Shown: one piece after another, positions 3,200 to 61,286 of the stretch
Position numbering within the stretch: position 1 is the first letter of the stretch
Layout: every line of letters begins with the position of its first letter
NCBI GenBank assembly: GCA_016214745.1
Contig: JACRNW010000006.1
Location: 13,367-77,366 of the forward strand
Length of the DNA stretch: 64,000 nucleotides
From: Candidatus Falkowbacteria bacterium
GTDB taxonomy: Bacteria; Patescibacteriota; Patescibacteriia; XYB2-FULL-38-15
Direction: 5' to 3'
Translations under genes and position numbers: made by a program
Notes under the pieces: generated by a model
What the model was told of the DNA's origin: nothing
The model's database searches: none
What the model saw: the letters and a program-made list of their open reading frames with translations, nothing else

Positions 3200-3285
3200 T
3201 TTAGTTAAATAGTTAATCAGTTAAATGGTTAAGTAGTTTTGTCGAAGGCAGTCACCGATTAACTGAGTAACTGATTAGCCAACTA
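3200..3285. repeat. Palindromic intergenic element family P2 (gttaatcagtt...aactgattaac), copy 1
   Basis: Inverted arms agttaaatagttaatcagttaaatggttaag / cgattaactgagtaactgattagccaactatt. Related copies at 8956-9083 and 61178-61286. Confidence 0.7.
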
Positions 3286-6956: not shown

Positions 6957-7043
6957 CTAATATTTATTAAGTTATTATAGCATAGAATATTTTATAAAAC
7001 AAGGGGACAAAAGCCCCTCTAAAAGAAGTTTTATAGATAAACT

Positions 7044-7097
7044 TGCCCAGCTTTCGCTGGGAATCCAGAAAAAACGGAATCCCGACGAAAGTCGGGC
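7044..7097. repeat. GC-rich double-hairpin unit G2 (cccagc-UUUC-gctggg ... cccgac-GAAA-gtcggg)
   Basis: gcccagctttcgctgggaatccagaaaaaacggaatcccgacgaaagtcggg. An almost identical unit and a half lie at 31891-31970. Confidence 0.7.
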
Positions 7098-7173
7098 AAT
7101 CTGCAGCCGTTCGCCCAGATTTTATTTTTTTGCTATAATGAAGATGTAATTTACAAATCTTGTTTTTAAAGAT

Positions 7174-8955: not shown

Positions 8956-9083
8956 AGTCAGTTAATCTGTTAATCAGTTGATTAGTTAATCAGTTTTTGG
9001 TTTTGTTGGGTAGTTTTTGTTTGTGGCAATTTAGTCGCCATTTTTTTAACTGATTAACTATTTAACCATTTAACTATTTAACC
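8956..9083. repeat. Palindromic intergenic element family P2, copy 2
   Basis: gtcagttaatctgttaatcagttgattagttaatcagtt...ttaactgattaactatttaaccatttaactatttaacc. Confidence 0.7.
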
Positions 9084-9086
9084 AAA

Positions 9087-10181
9087 GTGCTCTCGCGGTA
9101 TTTTTCATTTTTAAAACGTTTTGACTGGGTACTCGCGACTTCAGTATTTTTGCTTATGGTTTTAAGTTTAGTCGCGCTTTACAGCATTTCTTTAAGCAAA
9201 GCCCCGCCGGATTTTTTAAATTTTAATAAGCAGTTGATTTTTATTTTTGTCGGCTTGGCGGGATTTTTTGTTCTTAGTATTTTGGATTATAAGTGGTTGA
9301 AATTTTACAGTTTTCCCATTTACGGTCTGGCGATGATTTTGTTAATCGCTGTTTTGATTTTTGGCCAGGTTATTCGCGGAACTCAGGGTTGGTTTGGTTT
9401 TGGTTGGTTTAATTTTCAGCCGGTGGAAGTGGCGAAACTTGCCATGATTATTTTTTTGGCGAAATATTTTTCCCGCGGGGCGCATGAAATTTTTAATTTT
9501 AAATATATCGCGATAAGCGGAGTTTTTTCAGGAGTTTTGATCGGTTTAGTTTTGCTGCAGCCGGATTTTGGTTCGGCGTTGGTTCTTTTTTTCTTGTGGC
9601 TCGCGATGTTATTTTTAATTGGAATAAAGAGATCGCACTTGATTTTACTTTTAGTTTTGGTTGCGGTGCTTCTCGCCGGTTCGTGGTTTTTTGTTTTTCA
9701 GGATTATCAAAAAGAAAGAGTTTTGAGTTTTTTTGACGCTTCGCGCGATCCGCTCGGCCGCGGCTACAATATTACTCAGGCGCAGATTGCCGTCGGTTCG
9801 GGCCAAATGCTCGGCCGAGGAATTGGTTTTGGACCGCAAAGCCAATTGCGTTTCGTTCCGGAAAGCCAGACGGATTTTATTTTCGCCGTTTTAGCCGAAG
9901 AATTGGGTTTTTTGGGCGCGGCGCTTATTCTTGCTCTTTGGGGCGTTATTTTTTGGCGGGTTGTCCGAATCGCGAGACGCGCCCGCGACGATTTCAGCTT
10001 ATTTTTCGCGGCCGGTACAGCGATTGTCTTTTTGATTCAGATTTTTATTAATATTGGTATGACAGTCGGAGTAGCGCCGGTGACCGGTATTTCTTTGCCG
10101 TTTTTAAGTTATGGCGGCAGCGCGCTGGTCGTAAATTTAGCGATGGTCGGGATTTTAGAGAGTATTGCGGCAAGATCGTAA
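9087..10181 (+). CDS. SEDS-family peptidoglycan glycosyltransferase (RodA/FtsW)
   Basis: 364 aa, polytopic, with conserved SEDS segments (QPVEVAKLAMIIFLAKYF; PESQTDFIFAVLAEELGFLG; LPFLSYGGSALV). Confidence 0.8.
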   Translation: MLSRYFSFLKRFDWVLATSVFLLMVLSLVALYSISLSKAPPDFLNFNKQLIFIFVGLAGFFVLSILDYKWLKFYSFPIYGLAMILLIAVLIFGQVIRGTQGWFGFGWFNFQPVEVAKLAMIIFLAKYFSRGAHEIFNFKYIAISGVFSGVLIGLVLLQPDFGSALVLFFLWLAMLFLIGIKRSHLILLLVLVAVLLAGSWFFVFQDYQKERVLSFFDASRDPLGRGYNITQAQIAVGSGQMLGRGIGFGPQSQLRFVPESQTDFIFAVLAEELGFLGAALILALWGVIFWRVVRIARRARDDFSLFFAAGTAIVFLIQIFINIGMTVGVAPVTGISLPFLSYGGSALVVNLAMVGILESIAARS

Positions 10182-12337: not shown

Positions 12338-13234
12338 TTATATTTTAAAAATAACAACTCTATTTCTTCCCGCCAGGTCTTGTTTAATCTTTATTTTCGC
12401 GGCGGGAAAACGGCGCTTGATTAGTTTTGTGATAGATTTTTTTTGCGATGGGTCAATTTCGAAGAAACATGAAATATGAAACTTAAAACTTGAAACTTGA
12501 AAATTTTTGATTTGTTTTAGGAGTTGGCGGTAGTAATTGAGGCCGTCAGAACCGCCGTCCAGAGCTTGCTTCGGTTCATATTTTTTAATTTCCGGTTGAG
12601 TATGTCGCCACTGCGTGGTAGTGAGGTATGGCAAATTGGCAACGATTATTAAGTTGGAGTAGCGCCCGTAAGGGCGCGCTTGTGACGCAGCCTCACGGCT
12701 GCTATTCCGCGATGGAATAGTCATCAATGGCTCAAGCAAATTGCCGTGTAGCAAAGTAACGGCGACTTTATGATGAAGAATATTTTTTCGCGCTACTTTT
12801 AACGCCGCCGCCGAAATTTCTGTGGCGAAGATTTTTGCTTTGGGAAGATGGTGGGCGAGTGTTATGGCGATGGCGCCGCTTCCGGTTCCGACATCAATGA
12901 TTGCAGTTGGATTTTTATCTATTGCGGCTTCAACTAATGTTTCCGTTTCGGGGCGGGGGATTAGAACATTTTTATCAACAAAAAAATCCAGGCCGTAAAA
13001 ATATTTGTGGTCCGTGAGGTAGGCGATTGGTTCATGCCGTACTCGCCGAGCAATAAGTTTTTTAAATTTAGCCAGTTGTCCCGCGGCCAATTTTTTTTTA
13101 GGATGCGCGTACAAAAATTCTTTTGGTTTTTTTGTAACAAAAGCTAAAAGAATCTCTGCATCCAAGGCAGGGGAGGAAATTTTATTTTTTTGTAAAATTT
13201 TTATTGCCTCAATGAGCGATTGCTTGATAGTCAT
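12338..13234 (-). CDS. prmC: release factor glutamine methyltransferase PrmC/HemK, carrying a roughly 20-aa in-frame GC-rich insert
   Basis: DVGTGSGAIAITLA (SAM motif I) and IVANLPYL (NPPY-type motif). I place the start at MTIKQSL because the upstream in-frame codons lie inside the terminator hairpin of the neighbouring islet gene. The insert is MTIPSRNSSREAASQARPYGRYS, encoded by hairpin-forming GC-rich DNA at 12655-12728. Confidence 0.75.
   Translation of the reverse strand: MTIKQSLIEAIKILQKNKISSPALDAEILLAFVTKKPKEFLYAHPKKKLAAGQLAKFKKLIARRVRHEPIAYLTDHKYFYGLDFFVDKNVLIPRPETETLVEAAIDKNPTAIIDVGTGSGAIAITLAHHLPKAKIFATEISAAALKVARKNILHHKVAVTLLHGNLLEPLMTIPSRNSSREAASQARPYGRYSNLIIVANLPYLTTTQWRHTQPEIKKYEPKQALDGGSDGLNYYRQLLKQIKNFQVSSFKFHISCFFEIDPSQKKSITKLIKRRFPAAKIKIKQDLAGRNRVVIFKI
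12655..12728. repeat. In-frame GC-rich palindromic mini-insert inside prmC
   Basis: Hairpins agcgccc-gtaa-gggcgcg and ctattcc-gcgat-ggaatag lie between the conserved HemK motifs, where homologs have about 7 residues. Confidence 0.55.
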
Positions 13235-13316
13235 AGCGTTATTATAACATAAAAAAAGGCCTGAGCACTTGCGCACTCAGGCACCTCCTTGGAATTCGTT
13301 CCGCGGTGGGCTACGT

Positions 13317-13853
13317 TCAGGTGGGCTTGCCGGCGGTGGGCTCGACGACCTCCAGCTCCTCCTCGACGACCTCGGCTTCCGGAGCGTCAGCTTCTTCCGT
13401 GGCGGCTTTCGTGGCCTCCGCTCGGCTCTCGGTGACACAAGCGTCGAGCTCACGGTAGGGGAAAGCGTTGACGAGGTTGCTCCACGTGACGGGGTGACCG
13501 TCGGAGTCTTCCGTGTGGAGGAACTCCTCGAAAGCCGTCACAGTTTCATCGTGAGGGATTCGCTTGAACAGCTCGTCGACGAACAACTTGAAGTCCTTGG
13601 TGGCCGCCTCGAAGAGAGTCAGATTGTCCTCCACGCTTCCATGCCAGCCGGCGTAGAAGGGTCCGACGATCTTCGCGAAGCCGTGCAGTCCGACGAGACG
13701 CTTCAGGCCGGCGACGAAGCTCGGCTTCAGGCCCTCGCCGGGGATGGCCAGGATCTTGGCCACGATGTCCTCGACCCTCAGGAACCCCGTCAGGTAAGCC
13801 TTCTCCAGGCCGTCCGCAAGAAATACCTTCGCCATTTCCCGTCTGTCTTCCAT
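13317..13853 (-). CDS. GC-rich islet protein A (hypothetical, acidic C-terminal tail)
   Basis: MEDRREMAKVF... of about 178 aa. It has its own promoter (TTGACA-17-TAATGT at about 13918-13946, minus strand), an SD (gaaggaaaacc) before the ATG, and a hairpin plus T-run terminator (13259-13285, minus). GC content is far above that of neighbouring genes. Confidence 0.5.
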   Translation of the reverse strand: MEDRREMAKVFLADGLEKAYLTGFLRVEDIVAKILAIPGEGLKPSFVAGLKRLVGLHGFAKIVGPFYAGWHGSVEDNLTLFEAATKDFKLFVDELFKRIPHDETVTAFEEFLHTEDSDGHPVTWSNLVNAFPYRELDACVTESRAEATKAATEEADAPEAEVVEEELEVVEPTAGKPT

Positions 13854-13917
13854 GGTTTTCCTTCGCTTGCCTTTGCCCGCGACACGCGGGGAATTTTGGC
13901 AAGACCTTTCTACCCGC

Positions 13918-13946
13918 ACATTAGTTTAAAAAATTTTGTTTGTCAA
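13918..13946 (-). promoter_or_regulatory. sigma70-type promoter of islet gene A
   Basis: Minus-strand read cTTGACAaacaaaattttttaaacTAATGT: 17-nt spacer, placed about 60 nt upstream of the ATG. Confidence 0.45.
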
Positions 13947-14122
13947 GATAAAAAAAGAGCCCGCGGACTGCCGGGAGGGGGTGGGAGGTCTAAGACCTTT
14001 CCACGCGGCAGTACGCGGGCTTCGCGCCGGGGCTCTCCTGTGGTTTCGGGAGGGGCGCGAATTTGGACGGAGAACGAGCGGGTTAGGAACTCGCAGCTCT
14101 CACGTTGTTCGGGGGTGGACTA

Positions 14123-14335
14123 CTACTGGTCGGTGCCGTGAAGGCGGTATTCGCGCGCCTTCCGCCTGGCTCCTTCGGCTTGGCGGCGTTCCTCCTCGTC
14201 GTCGGGGATGAACCCGTCGGCGCGGCGATGATTCGGCCGACGCCTCTCGATCACGAACGGCCCTCCGTCCGGAATGATGCGAGATCCGTCGCGCGAGAGA
14301 GGCGTGCCATCGTGCATGAAAACTCCCTTTGACAT
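14123..14335 (-). CDS. small basic GC-rich protein (about 70 aa)
   Basis: The SD GAGGAGG lies 6 nt upstream of ATG: MSKGVFMHDGTPLSRDGSRIIPDGGPFVIERRRPNHRRADGFIPDDEEERRQAEGARRKAREYRLHGTDQ. Confidence 0.3.
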   Translation of the reverse strand: MSKGVFMHDGTPLSRDGSRIIPDGGPFVIERRRPNHRRADGFIPDDEEERRQAEGARRKAREYRLHGTDQ

Positions 14336-14500
14336 CCCTGTCCTCCTCAACCTTCCCTACGATCTCTATTGACAACTCGTCCCGTCCATCGGGCCGAGAT
14401 GTAGGGCCACCTTCCTTGCGTTTTGACGCGTGTCAACGGCGCAAAGCCACCCTGTTTGTTGATTTCATAATATTACAAAAAGATTAATTTGTCAACCCCC

Positions 14501-14529
14501 TTGACAAATTTTTTAATTATGATAGAGTA
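14501..14529 (+). promoter_or_regulatory. sigma70-type promoter (TTGACA, 16-nt spacer, TGaTAGAGT extended -10) overlapped by the inverted repeat ttgtcaa-ccccc-ttgacaa
   Basis: Read directly from the sequence. No protein-coding ORF follows it. Confidence 0.4.
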
Positions 14530-14534
14530 TTACG

Positions 14535-14855
14535 GCAAGGGTAATGGGGAGTCCTGTTCGGCTGATGCCAGCAGCGCACTGGCGTCATGGGTAATCTTTT
14601 TTCATCCCAAATCTAGAGCCCCTGGTTGGCGAACAGCGCGTTGATGCGCGGCCGACCTTGAGGCAAAGGACCCACGGGGTGGTCAGCAGGAACCCGGTCC
14701 GCGAGCTGCCCGTGAAGCAGACGTGGACTGAAATCTCCCCCGCGTTTTCGATCCTCCAAATCCGCTTTTAGCGGGTAAGGAGGTCACCCTTCTTTGCACA
14801 CCGCTACGTTTCGCGTTGTGCCTGTCGGTCGAACACCTGTTCGGCCGACTCTTTT
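14535..14855 (+). ncRNA. Candidate structured GC-rich non-coding RNA of about 320 nt (identity unknown)
   Basis: A promoter at 14501-14529, no ORF longer than 10 codons, and a strong terminator at 14818-14855 (gtcggtcgaacacctgttcggccgac + tctttttt). About 60% GC in an AT-rich genome. I could not match tmRNA, RNase P or SRP signatures by eye. Confidence 0.3.
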
Positions 14856-14880
14856 TTATATCAAAATTTATATCAAAAAA

Positions 14881-15083
14881 CCGGCCTTGCGGCCAGTCAA
14901 TTTTCCCCTCTTAAGGTAAGAGGGGCTGGGCCTGCCCGCAACGCCAGCAACCTGCCCGCTAATGCAAGCATAGCGTTGCAGGCGGGGCTGGCTTGCGTGG
15001 CGGGCGGGGGCGTTATGAGCGGCGATTTTAAAATCCACGGTTCATAACGCCACCCAACCCCCCCTTATCTTAAGGGGAGGGGT
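14881..15083. repeat. GC-rich composite element G1, copy X (flanked by ccccttaagg-type mini-hairpins)
   Basis: The roughly 130-bp core (cccctcttaaggtaagaggggctgggcctgcccgcaacgccagcaacctgcccgctaatgcaagcatagcgttgcaggcggggctggcttgcgtggcgggcgggggcgttatga...) is nearly identical to the reverse complement of 33070-33200. The last hairpin encodes the prfA C-terminus and stop. Confidence 0.8.
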
Positions 15084-16122
15084 TCATTGTTTCTTTTTTC
15101 AACACTTCAATGATCGGGTCAAGTTCGCCATCCATCACGTTATTTATACTATGCCAACTTTCTTTAACGCGGTGATCGGAAACGCGGTCTTGAGGAAAAT
15201 TATAAGTTCTGATTTTTTCCGCGCGCATGGCCGAACCGATCTGCGAACGTCGCGCCGCGACTTCCGCCGCCTGGCGTTTTTCCTGCTCCATTACAAAAAG
15301 TCGGGCGCGCAAAACTTGCATGGCTTTTTCCCGATTTTGCTGCTGGGAACGTTCGTCTTGGCAGGCGACAACAAGGCCCGACGGAATATGAGTAATACGC
15401 ACGGCGGAATATGTCGTTTGCACGCTCTGCCCGCCATGGCCGCCGGATAAAAATGTATCAACGCGCAAATCTTTTGGTTCAATTTTAATATCAATTTCTT
15501 CAGCTTCAGGAAGGACGGCGACGGAAGCGGTTGAAGTATGAACCCGGCCGCTTTTTTCCGTTTCCGGAACGCGCTGAACGCGATGCACGCCGCTTTCAAA
15601 TTTTAAATTTCCCCAAGCACCTTTTCCGATAACAGAAAAAATAATTTCTTTAAAACCTCCAAGGTCAGTGCGGTTGGCCGAGATCAATCTTGTCTGCCAG
15701 CCCTTGCGCTCGGCAAAGCGCGAGTACATTCGGAAAAGTTCGGCGGCAAAAATTGCGGCTTCATCGCCGCCGGCGCCAGCCCGGATTTCCACAATAATAT
15801 TTCTTTTGTCCAACGGATCTTTCGGCGTCAGTTCTTCTTTGATTTCCGCTTCAAGCGCCGACTTTTCTTGCCTAATTTTTTCCAATTCTTCTTTGGCAAT
15901 GACAGCCAATTCGGGAATGTCTTGCGCAGCAACGGTTTCCGTGTCAGTTTCTTCCTTTTCCAGTTTATGAAATTTATTTATTTTTTCCATTACTTCTTTT
16001 AAGTCGCTGTATTCCCGCGAAACGGTTTTCAGTTTTTCCGGATTAGAAACCACCTCGGGGCGGGCGAGTTCGGCCTCGAGTTCGGCAAAACGTTTTTCAG
16101 CTTTAGCGATTTCAGGAATCAT
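15070..16122 (-). CDS. prfA: peptide chain release factor 1
   Basis: 350 aa with GGQ ([12 protein letters not shown]) and the RF1-type PxT-like tripeptide ([14 protein letters not shown]). Confidence 0.9.
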
Positions 16123-16221
16123 AAATTATTTAAACATCTAAACATTTAAACATTTTAACATAAATTCTAACATAAAAACATGATAACAAAAACGTTACCA
16201 TGTTTTATGCAAATTGAATAG

Positions 16222-17885: not shown

Positions 17886-17961
17886 TTTTTATAAAAACAT
17901 ATAAACATCTAAACATACAAACAATTGTTTAAATGTTTAAATGTTTGAATATTTAAATATT

Positions 17962-18552
17962 ATGATCGTAAATCCAAAACTTGTTTCCGAGCTCCGCAAT
18001 GAAACCGGCGCCGGCGTTGTTGAATGCAAAAACGCCCTGGACGAAGCGAACGGAGACATCGCAAAAGCGATTGAAATTTTGAGAAAAAAGGGTGAGATTA
18101 AAGCCGCGAAAAAATCGGCCGAACGGACAACCAAAGAAGGTTTGATTCATGCTTATGTCCACGCGAACGGCAAAGTCGGAGCGATGATTGAAATGAGTTG
18201 TGAAACTGATTTTGTGGCGCGGAATGAAGAATTTCAGGCTTTGATTCATGATGTCGCGATGCAAGTCGCGGCGACTAATCCGTTGTACGTAAAACCCGAA
18301 GACGTGCCGGAAGAAGTGGTTGCAAAAGAAAAACAGATGTATCTTGAAGAATTGCAGGGGCAGGAAAAACCGCCGATGGTAGTGGAAAAAATTCTCGCGG
18401 GAAAATTGGAAAAATATTTTGAAGATGTTTGTCTCTTAAACCAGCCGTTCGTTAAAGACGAGGATATTACAATTGGAGAATTAATAAATCAAAAAATCGC
18501 CAAGATCGGCGAGAAGATTGAAGTGAAGAAATTTGTTAGGTTTCAGATTTAA
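17962..18552 (+). CDS. tsf: elongation factor Ts
   Basis: EF-Ts N-terminal UBA-like region (ELRNETGAGVVECKNALDEANGDIAKAIEILRKKG) and core. I place the start at ATG 17962 rather than the track's 17941. Confidence 0.85.
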   Translation: MIVNPKLVSELRNETGAGVVECKNALDEANGDIAKAIEILRKKGEIKAAKKSAERTTKEGLIHAYVHANGKVGAMIEMSCETDFVARNEEFQALIHDVAMQVAATNPLYVKPEDVPEEVVAKEKQMYLEELQGQEKPPMVVEKILAGKLEKYFEDVCLLNQPFVKDEDITIGELINQKIAKIGEKIEVKKFVRFQI

Positions 18553-31867: not shown

Positions 31868-31890
31868 GATATTTTGTTTGATATTTCAAC

Positions 31891-31970
31891 CGGAATCCCG
31901 ACGAAAGTCGGAAAATTGCCCAGCTTTCGCTGGGAGTCCAGAAAAAACGGAATCCCGACGAAAGTCGGGT
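31891..31970. repeat. GC-rich double-hairpin unit G2, 1.5 copies
   Basis: ggaatcccgacgaaagtcgg...gcccagctttcgctgggagtccagaaaaaacggaatcccgacgaaagtcggg. Compare 7044-7097. Confidence 0.7.
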
Positions 31971-32027
31971 TTTTGATTTCTCCCCTTAAGGTAAGGGGAG
32001 ATTAAGAGGGGTGAAATGGGGTTGACA

Positions 32028-32056
32028 AACTTGCTAAAATGTGTTATTCTAAATTG
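32028..32056 (+). promoter_or_regulatory. sigma70-type promoter (gTTGACAaac-17-TATTCT) preceding a hairpin-dense roughly 300-nt leader of islet gene D
   Basis: Read from the sequence. The leader at 32060-32360 contains at least 6 GC-rich hairpins (ctccccgaaggggagag, ctccctttaaaaaagggagag, cccccctttatcaagggggga and others). Confidence 0.35.
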
Positions 32057-32365
32057 TTAGTAAATAGTTCTTTTAAAGGTAAAACCCCCTCACTCCAACT
32101 CTCTCCCCGAAGGGGAGAGAGAGTTTCCTCGCCCCACTGGGGAGAGGACTAAGGTGAGGGGGCAACAAGTTCCCAGTTTTCTTTTGGCGGTTTTAAATCC
32201 CTCTCTAACTCTCCCTTTAAAAAAGGGAGAGAAATTCCCCCCTTTATCAAGGGGGGATTAAGGGGGATTTGCGAAGACCCCCAAAAGAAGGCTGGGAATT
32301 TCTCTCGGCCAGAGACAGCAACGTAGTCGCCGCGGGCGACCAGTTGCGAAGAAGGAGAACGAGTC

Positions 32366-32869
32366 ATGAGCGACGAGTTCAGGATGACGACGGGACAGGC
32401 GCATGAGTTGGCGATGGCCTTCGGTCGCAACGGCTGGACCAACGCCGACGTGAAGAAGATGTCTGAGGGCGATCTGCTCGCCCGACTGCTACCGGTCATC
32501 CGGGGGCAGGCCGACGTGAAGAAGCCGGAAATCCCGACCGAGATGACCGTCGGCGGCCGCGTCTACGAGATCCTCTCCTTCCTCCGGGAGGAGGACAACG
32601 GATTCGTCCGCGGCGACGTGATGGTCTCCCGGGCGAAGGAGCTCGGCGCCAACCTCGGCAAGGAGGACTGCGAGTTCCTCCTCACCCACCAGGACGAGAT
32701 TCCGCCCGCGTTGCGGGGCAAAGTCGTCTTCGTCTTCCCGGACTTGCGGCGCCCGGGCGACCGCGAGCACGTCGCGTACCTCCACTGGGACGACGGCGGC
32801 TGGTACCGGCACTGGTACTGGCTCTCGGACGACTGGGACGGCTACGATCGTCTCCTTCGCCGCAAGTAG
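32366..32869 (+). CDS. GC-rich islet protein D (hypothetical, W/D-rich C-terminus)
   Basis: SD gaaggag before the ATG. 167 aa with high GC3. Shares a weak DCEF/FEEF-L-x-T motif with islet proteins A and C. Confidence 0.45.
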   Translation: MSDEFRMTTGQAHELAMAFGRNGWTNADVKKMSEGDLLARLLPVIRGQADVKKPEIPTEMTVGGRVYEILSFLREEDNGFVRGDVMVSRAKELGANLGKEDCEFLLTHQDEIPPALRGKVVFVFPDLRRPGDREHVAYLHWDDGGWYRHWYWLSDDWDGYDRLLRRK

Positions 32870-33018
32870 TGTCCTTGGACCCTGGGTAACTCGGCCCTTC
32901 AAACCGGCCTGGTCGCTCGGACCCTCGGACACTTTGTCCCTTGGCCCCACTTCAAATCCAATGCTTCACAAAGCAAAGGAAATGAAGCGGGGCCGTTTTT
33001 TTATTTAAGATTTTAGAT

Positions 33019-33207
33019 TTTCTCCCCTTAAGGTAAGGGGAGACTAAGAGGAGTTATGAACGGTGGATTTTAGTGCTACGGTTCATAACGCCCCCGCCCG
33101 CCACGCAAGCCAGCCCCGCCTGCAACGCTATGCTTGCATTAGCGGGCAGGTTGCTGGCGTTGCGGGCAGGCCCAGCCCCTCTTATCTTAAGAGGGGAGCG
33201 TTATACT
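33019..33207. repeat. GC-rich composite element G1, copy Y (inverted relative to copy X)
   Basis: The reverse complement of 33070-33200 matches 14908-15040 almost base for base. Confidence 0.8.
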
Positions 33208-33265
33208 GATTTTTTTATTTATCTTTTTATGATATAATGAATAAAATTAGTGAAGAGAATAAATT

Positions 33266-49223: not shown

Positions 49224-49691
49224 TCATCGAGACAGCCTGACCATGCGAAGCAGCTTGGTGAAGGCGCCGCGGCAGTAAGCCTCTGCGCCGCCGTTTTCGA
49301 CAGGCGTGCCCTCGAGCAGTGTTTCGAACCCTTCGTACAGATCGTGCCGGAAGGTGTTCAGGGCGTGCGTGATTTCCCGCATTACTCGGGCACGGGCGTC
49401 GCGATTGCTCCATTCGCGAGTGGCCCGTTCGTAGGTTTCGCGGCTGATTACGGGCAGCGAATTTCCGGCCCGCATTCGTTCGACCGTCTCCAGAATCACC
49501 CAGAGGTAGTAGAGGAAGGCGAGATTTTCCCAAGTCTCGCCGGGATTCGCTCCGAAGATCTCGGCCAGACCATCCCGCACTTCTTCGAGCCAGTCGGCCG
49601 TAGCCGATTCGTCCGCTCGCAGGTCAACGATCAAACCGTTGAATTGGTCCCGGACAGAATTCCGACGCTTTTTGGCGTGTGTATCTTCCAT
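49224..49691 (-). CDS. GC-rich islet protein B (hypothetical; possible paralog of A and C)
   Basis: Promoter TTGACA-17-TAAGGT (49719-49747, minus) and SD aaaggagg. C-terminal LLRMVRL parallels ILRMIQL of protein C. Confidence 0.45.
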   Translation of the reverse strand: MEDTHAKKRRNSVRDQFNGLIVDLRADESATADWLEEVRDGLAEIFGANPGETWENLAFLYYLWVILETVERMRAGNSLPVISRETYERATREWSNRDARARVMREITHALNTFRHDLYEGFETLLEGTPVENGGAEAYCRGAFTKLLRMVRLSR

Positions 49692-49843: not shown

Positions 49844-50305
49844 TCAGTCGGCTGCTCGCAGCTCCTTGCTTCGTGCGCGTTCAAGCTGGATCATTCTCAG
49901 GATTACGGCGAAGATGTGTTCAACCAGCCTTCTGACGTGAAGCGACGCGATTGACTCGTTGAGTGTCGGTCTGAACTCACAATCGATGGTCTCGCGAAAC
50001 TGGTCGAAACTTTCATCATCAAGTGCGTTGTTCGGAACTTCACCGAGTCCACGCCATGCCTCGCCGGACGAATTAGAGGAGATTCGCGGCAGTTGATGGT
50101 CCAGCAATTTCTCGACGCTTTGCAGGCCTTTGAACATCACCGACATCGCCTTCAGGAAGTCGGAAGAAGCCAACTCAGAACCCCGAGCTCTTGCCCTGTT
50201 GAAGGCTTTCGCGATTTCGGGGTTGCTTTCCTGGAAGTCCTGGAATTTCTGGAAGGCAAAATTGTGCGGTTCTGCCCTTTCGGACGATTCCTCCTTGTTT
50301 CCCAT
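49844..50305 (-). CDS. GC-rich islet protein C (hypothetical; possible paralog of A and B)
   Basis: Promoter TTGACA-17-TAAAGT (50330-50358, minus) and SD aaaggagg, with the same architecture as gene B. Confidence 0.45.
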   Translation of the reverse strand: MGNKEESSERAEPHNFAFQKFQDFQESNPEIAKAFNRARARGSELASSDFLKAMSVMFKGLQSVEKLLDHQLPRISSNSSGEAWRGLGEVPNNALDDESFDQFRETIDCEFRPTLNESIASLHVRRLVEHIFAVILRMIQLERARSKELRAAD

Positions 50306-50414: not shown

Positions 50415-51065
50415 ATGAAACTTTGGAAAAAAATAGATTGGTTAATGCTCTTTTTTCTTCTTTTGATTTTTGCAGTTGGAATTTATATGGCACCGAATAT
50501 GCCGGACCGGGTTCCGACGCACTGGAATATCCGAGGGGAAGTTGACGGCTGGGGTTCAAAATACATCAATTTATTTTTGACGCCGAGTATTGCTTTAGCA
50601 ACATATCTTTTGATGTCTTTTTTGCCGGCGATTGATCCTTTCCGCAAAAATTATGAAAAATTCGCCAAACCGTATTTGTACTTTAAAATTTTCTTGGCGT
50701 TTTTCTTTGTTTATCTGGAAATATTTTTACTTTATTCCTCAGTCCGTTTTAGCCCGCCGCAGGGGAGTTTGATGTTCGCGATACCCTTTTCTTTACTTTT
50801 ATGTTTTATCGGATGGATTCTGCCGCAACTTAAAAGAAATTTTTTTATTGGCATCAAAACACCGTGGAGTCTTGTTTCCGACGATAATTGGAAAAAGACA
50901 CACGACTTCGGCGGTAAGGTGTTTATTCTGGCCGGCGTGGCGAGTTTAATCGCCGCCTTTTTTGGCAGCGTCGCGAGTTTCGTAGTTTTAATCGCCAGCG
51001 TTTTTGTTGCCGCGTTTGCCACCTTCATTTACAGTTATTTGATATATAGAAAGGAGAAAAAATAA
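50415..51065 (+). CDS. membrane protein, DUF1648/SdpI-like
   Basis: 216 aa, polytopic. The N-terminal region (PNMPDRVPTHWNIRGEVDGWGSKY) resembles DUF1648. Confidence 0.45.
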   Translation: MKLWKKIDWLMLFFLLLIFAVGIYMAPNMPDRVPTHWNIRGEVDGWGSKYINLFLTPSIALATYLLMSFLPAIDPFRKNYEKFAKPYLYFKIFLAFFFVYLEIFLLYSSVRFSPPQGSLMFAIPFSLLLCFIGWILPQLKRNFFIGIKTPWSLVSDDNWKKTHDFGGKVFILAGVASLIAAFFGSVASFVVLIASVFVAAFATFIYSYLIYRKEKK

Positions 51066-60983: not shown

Positions 60984-61177
60984 GGAATTTGTTTTGTGGA
61001 TAAAATTAGCTTGACAGGTTTTTCTGGGTATTGTAGTATAAATTAATTGACAAGCGAATGAGAGAAATGAATTTATTCATTTCCGAGTGAGCGCAGTCAA
61101 TATAGGGTAAAACCCTCTATTACCAAAGACAGCAGGCGTTTGCCCTAAAAGGCGACTCAATTTCCTGCCGAGGTAAA

Positions 61178-61286
61178 CTAGTTGATCAGTTAAATAGTTA
61201 ATTGGTTAAATAGTTATTGTCTCGTGGTAATTGCCACGATTTTTTGTATCCCGATTAACTAATCAACTGATTAACCAATTAACTGA
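61178..61286. repeat. Palindromic intergenic element family P2, copy 3
   Basis: agttgatcagttaaatagttaattggttaaatagtta...ttaactaatcaactgattaaccaattaactga. Confidence 0.7.

Follow-up and report, generated by a model that had tools for sequence, protein, structure and literature searches.

A candidate structured noncoding RNA gene of an undescribed family between prmC and prfA in Candidatus Falkowbacteria

Orphan structured RNAs and the Falkowbacteria locus

In AT-rich genomes, long intergenic regions of high GC content are an established indicator of structured noncoding RNAs (ncRNAs) (PMC6429828, PMC8632094, PMC8723152). The candidate RNA described herein lies on the + strand of a 64,000-nt stretch of Candidatus Falkowbacteria (Patescibacteria/candidate phyla radiation, CPR), which has a GC content of ~42% and is called the window throughout. 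It is located within a GC-rich islet between the genes prmC and prfA, and the RNA segment itself has a GC content of 58% compared with ~42% for the genome. The orphan ncRNAs from the GC-rich intergenic region (GC-IGR) and DIMPL searches of the Breaker laboratory resemble it in several respects: a GC-rich intergenic segment free of open reading frames (ORFs) in an AT-rich genome, an own promoter and terminator, a fold of several junctions that are conserved and peripheral helices that vary, a patchy accessory distribution, and the same logic of discovery. The Falkowbacteria RNA differs from them by a much narrower distribution, with five distinct loci of one clade in all collections searched, and by being surrounded by protein genes that are also GC-rich.

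Larger orphan structured ncRNAs include raiA, HEARO, ROOL, GOLLD, and OLE. In Rfam 15, the Falkowbacteria RNA matches none of these families in sequence or structure, even at E values up to 10. CPR bacteria have tiny genomes and are almost all uncultured, and to our knowledge very few of their ncRNAs have been described. No paper on Falkowbacteria or CPR ncRNAs of this kind was found in the literature.

We propose that the segment is an independently transcribed gene for a ~320-nt structured ncRNA of an undescribed family, which is restricted to a genus-level Falkowbacteria group and for which a protein-binding mechanism is favored. The probability of this reading is about one half. The family is new in that it has no detectable relative; the category, that of orphan structured ncRNAs, is already known. 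The coordinates of all features are compiled in Table 1.

Table 1. Features of the ncRNA locus and of other elements in the window. Coordinates are positions in the 64,000-nt stretch.
Feature	Coordinates	Strand	Description
Predicted transcript, ~320 nt	14535-14857	+	Candidate structured noncoding RNA, no Rfam match, no conserved ORF
RNA promoter	14501-14528	+	-35 TTGACA 14501-14506, 16-nt spacer, -10 TAGAGT 14523-14528
5' core AGGGUAAUGGGGAGUCC	14538-14554	+	5' strands of P1 (AGGGU), P2 (GGGGAG), and P3 base (UCC)
Variable central domain	14555-14730	+	Ha 14564-14586, Hc 14624-14657, P3 3' strand 14681-14691, P6 14695-14730
Junction AAAU and P2 3' strand CUCCCC	14731-14740	+	Forms, with GGA-ACC-CGG (14689-14697), the P2/P3/P6 three-way junction
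P7 hairpin, 36 nt	14750-14785	+	GA-U-CCUCC-AA-AUCCGCU-UUU-AGCGGGU-AA-GGAGG-UC
P8 hairpin, 26 nt	14796-14821	+	GCACA-C-CGC-UACGUUUC-GCG-U-UGUGC, stem and loop almost invariant
Intrinsic terminator of the RNA	14824-14857	+	Stem 14824-14849, then TCTTTTTT
Palindrome ttgtcaa-ccccc-ttgacaa	14489-14507		
P(-), promoter of the orf70 operon	14467-14495	-	TTGACA-17-TATTAT, 11/12 consensus matches
orf70 mRNA leader	14336-14460	-	~125 nt, conserved, structured; neighboring unit, not part of the RNA
orf70	14123-14335	-	70-aa Arg/Glu-rich protein
orf180	13317-13853	-	Between orf70 and prmC
prmC	12338-13276	-	Border of the islet; follows orf180 in the minus-strand operon
prfA terminator	14869-14898	-	Faces the RNA terminator; TATATCAAAAAACCGGCCTTGCGGCC kept in RNA-filled and RNA-empty loci alike
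prfA	15070-16122	-	Other border of the islet; rpmE and rpsB beyond
GC-rich islet	~13277-15069	both	Genes on both strands; 54-57% GC
176-nt GC-rich element	14904-15079; 33022-33197		CCCCTCTTAAGGTAAGAGGGG-type hairpin borders; second copy inverted, 90% identical
Second GC-rich islet	32020-33210		Splits two hydrogenase subunit genes
167-aa orphan ORF of the second islet	32366-32869		GC content at third codon positions (GC3) 0.92
Orphan genes on GC-rich islets	13317-14335; 32366-32869		GC3 0.63-0.92 together with the next row
Orphan genes on GC-rich islets, continued	49224-49691; 49844-50305	-	
8-bp-period repeat arrays, TAAACATN / AGTTAANN	16115-16163; 17886-17962; 9047-9087; 3203-3239; 8960-9004; 61172-61216		AT-rich, intergenic
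Hairpin repeat family AATCCCGACGAAAGTCGGG	7039-7100; 31888-31973		58-nt unit, 97% identical
Ribosomal protein L10 leader, RF00557	61105-61255	+	47.7 bits (gathering threshold 44)

Sequence constraint and coding potential

The complete unit, from promoter to terminator, is found at the same site in five distinct loci: the window, L026, L004, L003, and L001 (L007 is nearly identical to L004, and L002 is the same as L001). Relatives were recovered by protein searches with orf180 and orf70, the two small genes next to the RNA, by a 27-nt pattern on metagenome contigs, and by a 22-nt pattern on GTDB genomes. Pairwise identities of the RNA regions were determined among these five homologs, with the prfA third-codon positions of the same genomes as the neutral reference. 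The latter are 0.53-0.80 identical. The 5' core (17 nt) shows an identity of 0.94-1.00, the junction together with the 3' strand of P2 (13 nt) 0.92-1.00, and the 3' domain consisting of P7, P8, and the terminator (100 nt) 0.88-0.95. Since these values exceed the level of the prfA third-codon positions, the scaffold is under strong purifying selection. The central domain, which varies in length from 128 to 193 nt, shows an identity of 0.14-0.78 and contains many indels whose lengths are not multiples of three; by this measure, its rate of change equals or exceeds the neutral one.

The ORFs listed for the two strands of the five homologs include no frame common to them. In the window, the longest ORF starting with ATG has 16 codons (at 14544), and its ATG is lost in L004 and L001. 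With TTG or GTG as the start codon, ORFs encode up to 37 aa (+ strand) and 48 aa (- strand). The preliminary description of this DNA, made from its sequence, had given 10 codons as the longest ORF: the count is inexact, and its substance, the lack of a real or conserved ORF, holds. The indels among the homologs are mostly not multiples of three and, thus, shift the frames.

Promoter, palindrome, and terminator

The promoter of the RNA is of the sigma-70 type with 10/12 consensus positions and has an extended -10 element formed by a TG at 14520-14521. The predicted RNA start, ~14535, is located 0-3 nt ahead of the first conserved RNA bases. Across the homologs the -35 hexamer TTGACA is invariant (5/5) and the spacing is 16-17 nt with differing spacer sequences, and the -10 hexamer occurs in the variants TAGAGT, TAGAAT, TAAAGT, and TATAGT, each preceded by TG. 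The conserved AGGGUAA starts 7-9 nt past the -10 element in every homolog. Hence, the transcript boundaries appear to be the structural boundaries as well.

At the 3' end, the terminator stem in the window consists of 11 pairs, seven of which are G-C, with a free energy of -18.1 kcal/mol. The terminator is retained in 5/5 homologs, where 11-12 bp form the stem and 2-5 nt the loop, together with UCUUUUUU, and U-G and U-A pairs replace one another. A consensus scan of the window by itself does not exceed chance for either kind of signal, with four promoter-like sites against 1.8 expected and five terminator-like sites against 5.8 expected. The case for real signals is, therefore, made by the homologs, in all five of which promoter and terminator are kept while the spacer varies. 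The promoter and the canonical terminator described for this segment at the outset are present as stated, and the view of a stand-alone, ORF-less structured RNA gene on a GC-rich islet agrees with the retention of these signals and with the lack of a shared frame.

The palindrome, in which the preliminary description saw a possible operator, is likewise present, but this role is weakened. Its left half is the -35 box of P(-), the divergently oriented promoter of the orf70 operon. More simply, the palindrome may be regarded as the two back-to-back -35 hexamers of divergent promoters, together with some bases of the spacer. Its halves are split by a 47-nt insertion in L001, where both promoters persist, and RNA-less genomes retain the left half only. 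The spacer of L004 and L026 is a perfect 23-nt palindrome, TTTGTCAAGAGACTCTTGACAAA; a shared operator may thus exist, yet it is unneeded to explain the symmetry.

Predicted structure and covariation

The folding z-scores of the RNA strand are -4.4, -5.0, -3.1, and -4.6, and the opposite strand in the window gives -2.7. In the recurring fold, P2 is stacked onto the base of P3 and leads into a three-way junction of the order GGA-ACC-[P6]-AAAU-CUCCCC, which is followed by P7, P8, and the terminator. The distal part of P3 extends into the variable hairpins Ha, Hb, and Hc, and P6 closes the three-way junction. High pair probabilities are obtained for P2, P6, P7, P8, and the terminator in 4/5 homologs. 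P2 (GGGGAG/CUCCCC) is invariant and pairs in all alignment cells, and the base of P3 is formed by UCC/GGA. P1 (AGGGU/ACCCU) contains one mismatch in L003 and wobble pairs in L001; thermodynamic folding predicts it in no homologs but the window, L004 and, in part, L026, and its probability is low in L003 and L001. P7 combines an anti-Shine-Dalgarno-like CCUCC with a Shine-Dalgarno-like (UAA)GGAGG. Herein, 98.6% of the cells pair, the base-pair probability is 0.97-0.99 in 4/5 homologs, and the free energy amounts to -18.1 kcal/mol. In L026, its loop is replaced by a UUCG tetraloop.

Compensatory changes are found in the variable domain. Ha has one such position (A-U, G-U, G-C), the outer stem of Hc has three (G-C to A-U; U-A to C-G or G-C), and U-A is replaced by C-G in the P6 of L004 and L001, a hairpin whose distal parts differ in length. 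The central sequence of L001 is unrelated, shorter, and unalignable; helices still form between the same junction strands. In a MAFFT alignment of the five sequences, 94.2% of the cells of 84 proposed pairs are paired compared with 36-44% for slid partners, a comparison that is inflated by the structure having been taken from the window sequence. Both-sided changes occur in five pairs, and the covariation score is 0.119 versus 0.094 in shuffles, 4/500 of which reach it. The covariation is modest because there are only five homologs from one narrow clade; as evidence for the fold it is supportive, not decisive.

Comparison with known RNA families

Rfam 15 comprises 4227 models, known riboswitches and self-cleaving ribozymes included. 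At gathering thresholds, a search of the whole window found nothing in the RNA segment, and at E values up to 10 the window, L001, and L003 versions of the RNA gave noise only. The best overlapping match is SorY with 23 bits against a gathering threshold of 111, and it covers only the generic 3' hairpins and the terminator. None of the known self-cleaving ribozyme models in Rfam 15 matches. Hence, the Infernal/Rfam scan that had been named as a check returns no family for this RNA. The only Rfam family in the window is the ribosomal protein L10 leader, far from the RNA (Table 1).

The housekeeping RNAs, that is, RNase P RNA, transfer-messenger RNA (tmRNA), and signal recognition particle (SRP) RNA, as well as 6S RNA, resemble the candidate by being GC-rich, stable, stand-alone transcripts. 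Further similarities are superficial motif echoes: GGGGAGUCC versus GGAAAGUCC, CAGGAACCCGG versus ACAGAACCCGG, and GAAGCAG. The look-alike words, however, form other helices, with GGAACCCGG being the end of P3, the junction, and the start of P6, or they lie in nonconserved hairpin tips. In RNase P RNA, P4 is formed by pairing between GGAAAGUCCGG and ACAGAACCCGGCUUA. The corresponding words of the candidate, GAGUCCUG and CCCGGUCC, are not mutually paired; instead, GGGGAG pairs with CUCCCC and UCC with GGA. The RNase P models RF00010 and RF00011 match none of three homologs, neither at gathering thresholds nor at E values up to 10.

Hallmarks of the other three are a tRNA-like domain with a tag frame (tmRNA), the helix 8 motif (SRP RNA), and a rod with a central bubble (6S RNA). 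For tmRNA (RF00023), ARAGORN and Rfam are empty and neither a tag ORF nor a T-arm is present; ARAGORN finds no tRNA or tmRNA in the window at all. SRP RNA (RF00169) and 6S RNA (RF00013) give no Rfam match, and the fold is multibranched rather than rod-like. It had been stated earlier that no convincing tmRNA, RNase P, or SRP signature exists, and this conclusion stands. The faint echo of SRP helix 8 mentioned alongside does not: the GAAGCAG stretch belongs to the variable, nonconserved tip of P6 and is missing in L004, L026, and L001, with L004 having CCUGUUAUGCAGG in its place. An essential housekeeping RNA is also incompatible with the absence of the gene from close relatives.

Distribution among related genomes

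The order prfA, RNA, orf70 operon, and prmC is shared with the window by four further distinct Falkowbacteria/Patescibacteria assemblies. The scan of GTDB genomes gave 17 matches, of which 16 are chance occurrences in GC-rich genomes and only L007 is real. No blastn match to the RNA exists in the phage and plasmid collections. In IMG/VR, the 27-nt pattern has no match, and the matches of two 15-base patterns are chance, with no extended similarity by nhmmer. The RNA is a single-copy element, with no paralogs or repeat family within the 64-kb window and one locus per genome in the collection scans.

At least eight related lineages keep P(-), the leader, and orf70 without the RNA (L022-24, L025, L027/28, L030/31, L032, L033/34, L117, and L029), and nhmmer finds no RNA in these loci. 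Therefore, the RNA is dispensable. In the RNA-less loci, TTTGTCAA runs nearly straight into the terminator of prfA (or prs) or into other small elements. Comparing filled with empty sites, the borders are constant, with TTTGTCAA on the left and TATATCAAAAAACCGG on the right, and no clear target duplication or terminal repeats are visible. An interpretation as a repeated intergenic element, such as a miniature inverted-repeat transposable element (MITE) or a repetitive extragenic palindromic (REP)-like sequence, was rejected given the single copy in the window and because neither terminal inverted repeats nor a clear target duplication could be seen.

As judged by prfA third-codon identity, a closer relative without the RNA exists for every RNA-positive genome, and the divergence of the RNA roughly tracks that of prfA. 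The RNA is probably inherited mostly vertically with repeated loss. Recombination between the flanks may also have transferred it, given that the window and L003 resemble each other more in orf70 than in prfA. A partnership with orf70 or orf180 was considered as well and finds no support in presence and absence, as the RNA occurs in L004, where orf180 is missing, and orf70 occurs in many genomes that lack the RNA.

The site next to the -35 box of P(-) (TTTGTCAA), equivalent to position ~14496 of the window, is an insertion hot spot. At this site, L027 (~1-150) and L117 (~1205-1390) harbor another small element, which is AT-rich and bounded by the inverted ends CCCCGTTARAA...TTCTAACGGGG. Palindromic repeat clusters occupy the hot spot in other lineages, and in five it harbors the ncRNA gene.

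Proposed mode of action

In the proposed mechanism, the extended -10 promoter of the sigma-70 type would start transcription at the first conserved bases. The RNA would fold into the conserved scaffold of P2 on P3, the three-way junction, P7, and P8, which would bear the fast-evolving, GC-rich central domain with its multiple hairpins, and transcription would end at the intrinsic terminator facing that of prfA. The gene would be an accessory add-on to the GC-rich islet with its orf70-orf180-prmC operon, passed on mostly vertically and repeatedly lost. The RNA would act in trans as a protein-binding or scaffold RNA, either in a small ribonucleoprotein or as a protein sponge. Herein, the invariant 3' hairpins and the junction would provide the recognition surface, and the variable domain would be a tolerated periphery.

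Action in trans by protein binding or scaffolding is put forward tentatively, with lower confidence than the reading as a whole. It is favored, and preferred over antisense pairing, because P7 and P8, stem as well as loop, and the junction are among the invariant parts, which suggests sequence-specific recognition in excess of the needs of folding, because there is neither a conserved single-stranded seed nor a complementary target nearby, and because the large peripheral domain is free to vary. The RNA may be a regulatory RNA, as the preliminary description had suggested.

Several points weigh against the proposal. Transcription is predicted from sequence signals only, the protein-binding mechanism is putative, and the AlphaFold models of the orf70 and orf180 products have low confidence (pLDDT 51 and 61). 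Across all collections searched only five homologs from one narrow clade were found, and the RNA is missing from the at least eight relatives named above, which have both orf70 and its leader. The third-codon identity of the window and L003 is 0.81 for orf70 and 0.58 for prfA; a possible recombination of the islet between lineages may have inflated the apparent conservation. High GC is unusable as a signature of RNA structure here because the whole islet is GC-rich, the protein genes orf70 and orf180 included. As to the fold, P1 and the base of P3 are not thermodynamically predicted in L003 and L001, and P2, P7, and P8 are uninformative on pairing because they never vary; the inflated contrast with slid partners belongs here too.

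Alternative explanations

The alternative that survives best, although unlikely, is an orphaned or stand-alone riboswitch-like element, in which the junction would be the aptamer and P7 the platform sequestering the Shine-Dalgarno sequence UAAGGAGGU. It may be the remnant of a gene with a deleted ORF or a ligand-responsive RNA acting in trans. A riboswitch-containing small RNA (sRNA) is known in EutX/Rli55. Like this system and like riboswitch expression platforms in general, the Falkowbacteria RNA has a junction domain followed by a Shine-Dalgarno/anti-Shine-Dalgarno hairpin and a terminator, and its conservation, centered on the junction with variable peripheral helices, is typical of aptamers. 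The CCUCC of P7 is paired with (UAA)GGAGG, and 10 nt further on there is a UUG. Two partners are open to one ACCC(U): the 5' AGGGU, with which it forms P1, and the GGGU within P7. The possible alternative hairpin that results, GGGUGA-GGAGG-UCACCC, is kept by wobble changes in L001. This hairpin, however, is weak, with -2.7 to -5.3 kcal/mol versus -18.1 kcal/mol for P7, and Rfam recognizes no aptamer class. Furthermore, no ORF follows: the UUG frame passes through the terminator without a stop and is shifted by a loop indel in the other homologs, and the UUG is UUA in L026. The next downstream signal is the convergent prfA terminator. Because the RNA terminator faces it, no target for regulation in cis remains. 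Had the RNA become a dead relic, P7, P8, and the terminator would not show 88-95% identity against 53-80% for neutral positions. The Shine-Dalgarno/anti-Shine-Dalgarno make-up of P7 and the two GGGU competing for ACCC leave room, though, for a switch-like or ribosome-decoy function.

Also unlikely is functionless passenger DNA, brought into the insertion hot spot by a small mobile element or horizontal transfer, with promoter-like and terminator-like sequences of no consequence to the cell. The patchy presence would fit, with a closer RNA-negative relative for each RNA-positive genome, and so would the position beside TTTGTCAA, where L027 and L117 carry another element, in a region rich in small palindromic repeats with the 176-nt repeated element and a foreign-looking islet composition. 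Yet junk would be expected to decay uniformly, and the segment does not: the core and the 3' domain are 0.88-1.0 identical and the center is 0.14-0.78 identical. Compensatory changes and promoter hexamers that are kept while their spacers drift are equally foreign to a passenger. The single copy in the window, the lack of terminal inverted repeats and target duplication, and the lack of copies in the phage, plasmid, and IMG/VR collections speak against a mobile element.

Base pairing, either to the divergent orf70 operon or through a seed to other mRNAs, is rather improbable. Divergent type I toxin-antitoxin pairs are exemplified by IstR-1/tisB, OhsC/shoB, and OrzO/zorO. These, as well as OxyS/oxyR, share with the locus the back-to-back genes with sigma-70 promoters, a leader, and an intrinsic terminator; herein, the small ORF opposite the sRNA gene has a 5' leader that is long, conserved, and structured, and the large invariant loop of P8 could be a seed. 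However, the RNA has no complementarity to its neighbor: no conserved match of at least 9 nt to the leader or ribosome-binding site exists in any two lineages, and the duplex energies of RNA and leader equal those of shuffled controls. The best match within the 64-kb window is a 13-mer in an ORF at 50503-50515, which is at chance level. At ~320 nt with two multiway junctions, the RNA is also far more complex than the antitoxin RNAs. With its hydrophilic, highly charged composition, the orf70 product does not resemble the small hydrophobic toxins of type I systems, and RNA-less genomes keep orf70, which would be intolerable for a toxin. Targeting through a U-rich loop complementary to ATGAAAAAAG start regions was rejected, as the loop is not conserved and is A-rich in L003.

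Very improbable is that transcription itself is functional and the RNA secondary, with P(+), the promoter of the RNA, tuning orf70-orf180-prmC through promoter competition or local supercoiling. The two -35 boxes are separated by only 5 nt in the window and L003 and by 7 nt in L004 and L026, and P(-) probably feeds prmC too, given that the signal scan of the islet shows no terminator between orf180 and prmC. With 52 nt between the boxes in L001, however, the spacing is not conserved, and the conservation of the RNA body and its helices is left unexplained.

That frameshifts or an unusual start codon conceal a small protein gene is largely refuted: stop-free frames of 37-114 codons occur in single homologs, as expected for GC-rich sequence, but none is common to them given the indels and the lost ATG described above, no ribosome-binding site precedes the candidates apart from the nonstop UUG frame, and the translated frames are low-complexity Arg/Pro/Gly/Ser.

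Neighboring genes and other elements of the window

The RNA gene is enclosed between two terminators, its own and the convergent one of prfA. In at least 12 loci, all RNA-less ones included, P(-) is unchanged or almost unchanged. One islet protein is identical to NCBI HZB93_01745. The orf70 product is rich in Arg, Glu, and Asp and has 65-72 aa in most loci. That of orf180 is all-helical with an acidic tail and has only eight relatives in a profile search. For neither was a family, defense-system, or structure match found in Pfam, PHROGs, PADLOC, NCBIfam, or the Protein Data Bank (PDB). Both genes have a GC3 of 0.75-0.81. Generally, the orphan genes on GC-rich islets of the window (Table 1) are set apart by their GC3 from prfA, prmC, rpmE, and rpsB with 0.39-0.51. 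Despite its foreign-looking composition, the islet with orf70 and orf180 is kept at the same site in many related genomes. In L004 (7850-8240) and L007 (5320-5720), orf180 is missing, its position being taken by a GC-rich tandem duplication (translated repeat SEMNKF(I/M)SLTRLII), and the ncRNA and orf70 are retained.

The leader of the orf70 mRNA is far more widespread than the ncRNA, being found in the window, L001, L003, L004, L022, L025-L027, L030, L032, L033, and L117. One of its hairpins, CUCG-G-CCCG-AUGGA-CGGG-A-CGAG, covaries between CCCG/CGGG and CCUG/CAGG, and the tip of another has undergone four unrelated hairpin replacements across lineages. A long-range helix, CCCUA...UAGGG, immediately ahead of the ribosome-binding site brackets the leader. 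No Rfam family matches the leader, which may be an unrecognized cis-regulatory element.

On the other side of the RNA gene, one copy of the 176-nt element extends over the stop codon of prfA, and the C-terminal residues of PrfA (..KKETMNPSP) are encoded by it. PrfA ends with ..KKEI or ..KKT in relatives without the element, and shorter versions of it are present in L030 and L033. The second GC-rich islet consists of a TTGACA-17-TATTCT promoter, a ~300-nt hairpin-rich leader, the 167-aa orphan ORF, for which Pfam, PHROGs, PADLOC, and NCBIfam gave no match, and a terminator. One set of the small hairpin repeat family adjoins this islet. Among the sites of the AT-rich arrays with an 8-bp period are those directly upstream of prfA, following rpsB, and within the L10 leader region. 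The arrays may represent phased elements, either of the promoter-upstream or of the protein-binding kind.

Implications

The RNA is strongly constrained yet repeatedly lost, and it is located between the translation-termination genes prfA and prmC on a foreign-looking islet. If it is merely another orphan sRNA, the wider significance is modest: such candidates are common, the distribution is narrow, and the RNA is dispensable. It is doubtful that the RNA founds a new functional class, namely a stand-alone catalytic or ligand- or protein-sensing RNA on a recombination-mobile CPR islet. If it did, the invariant junction and the Shine-Dalgarno/anti-Shine-Dalgarno hairpin would be the active or switching core, for instance, of a regulated anti-Shine-Dalgarno decoy beside release-factor genes. 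The analysis yields a transcript model with boundaries, helices, and five homologs, which can seed a covariance model and a search of metatranscriptomes. Hence, the RNA is a concrete, testable candidate for lineage-specific RNA biology in CPR.

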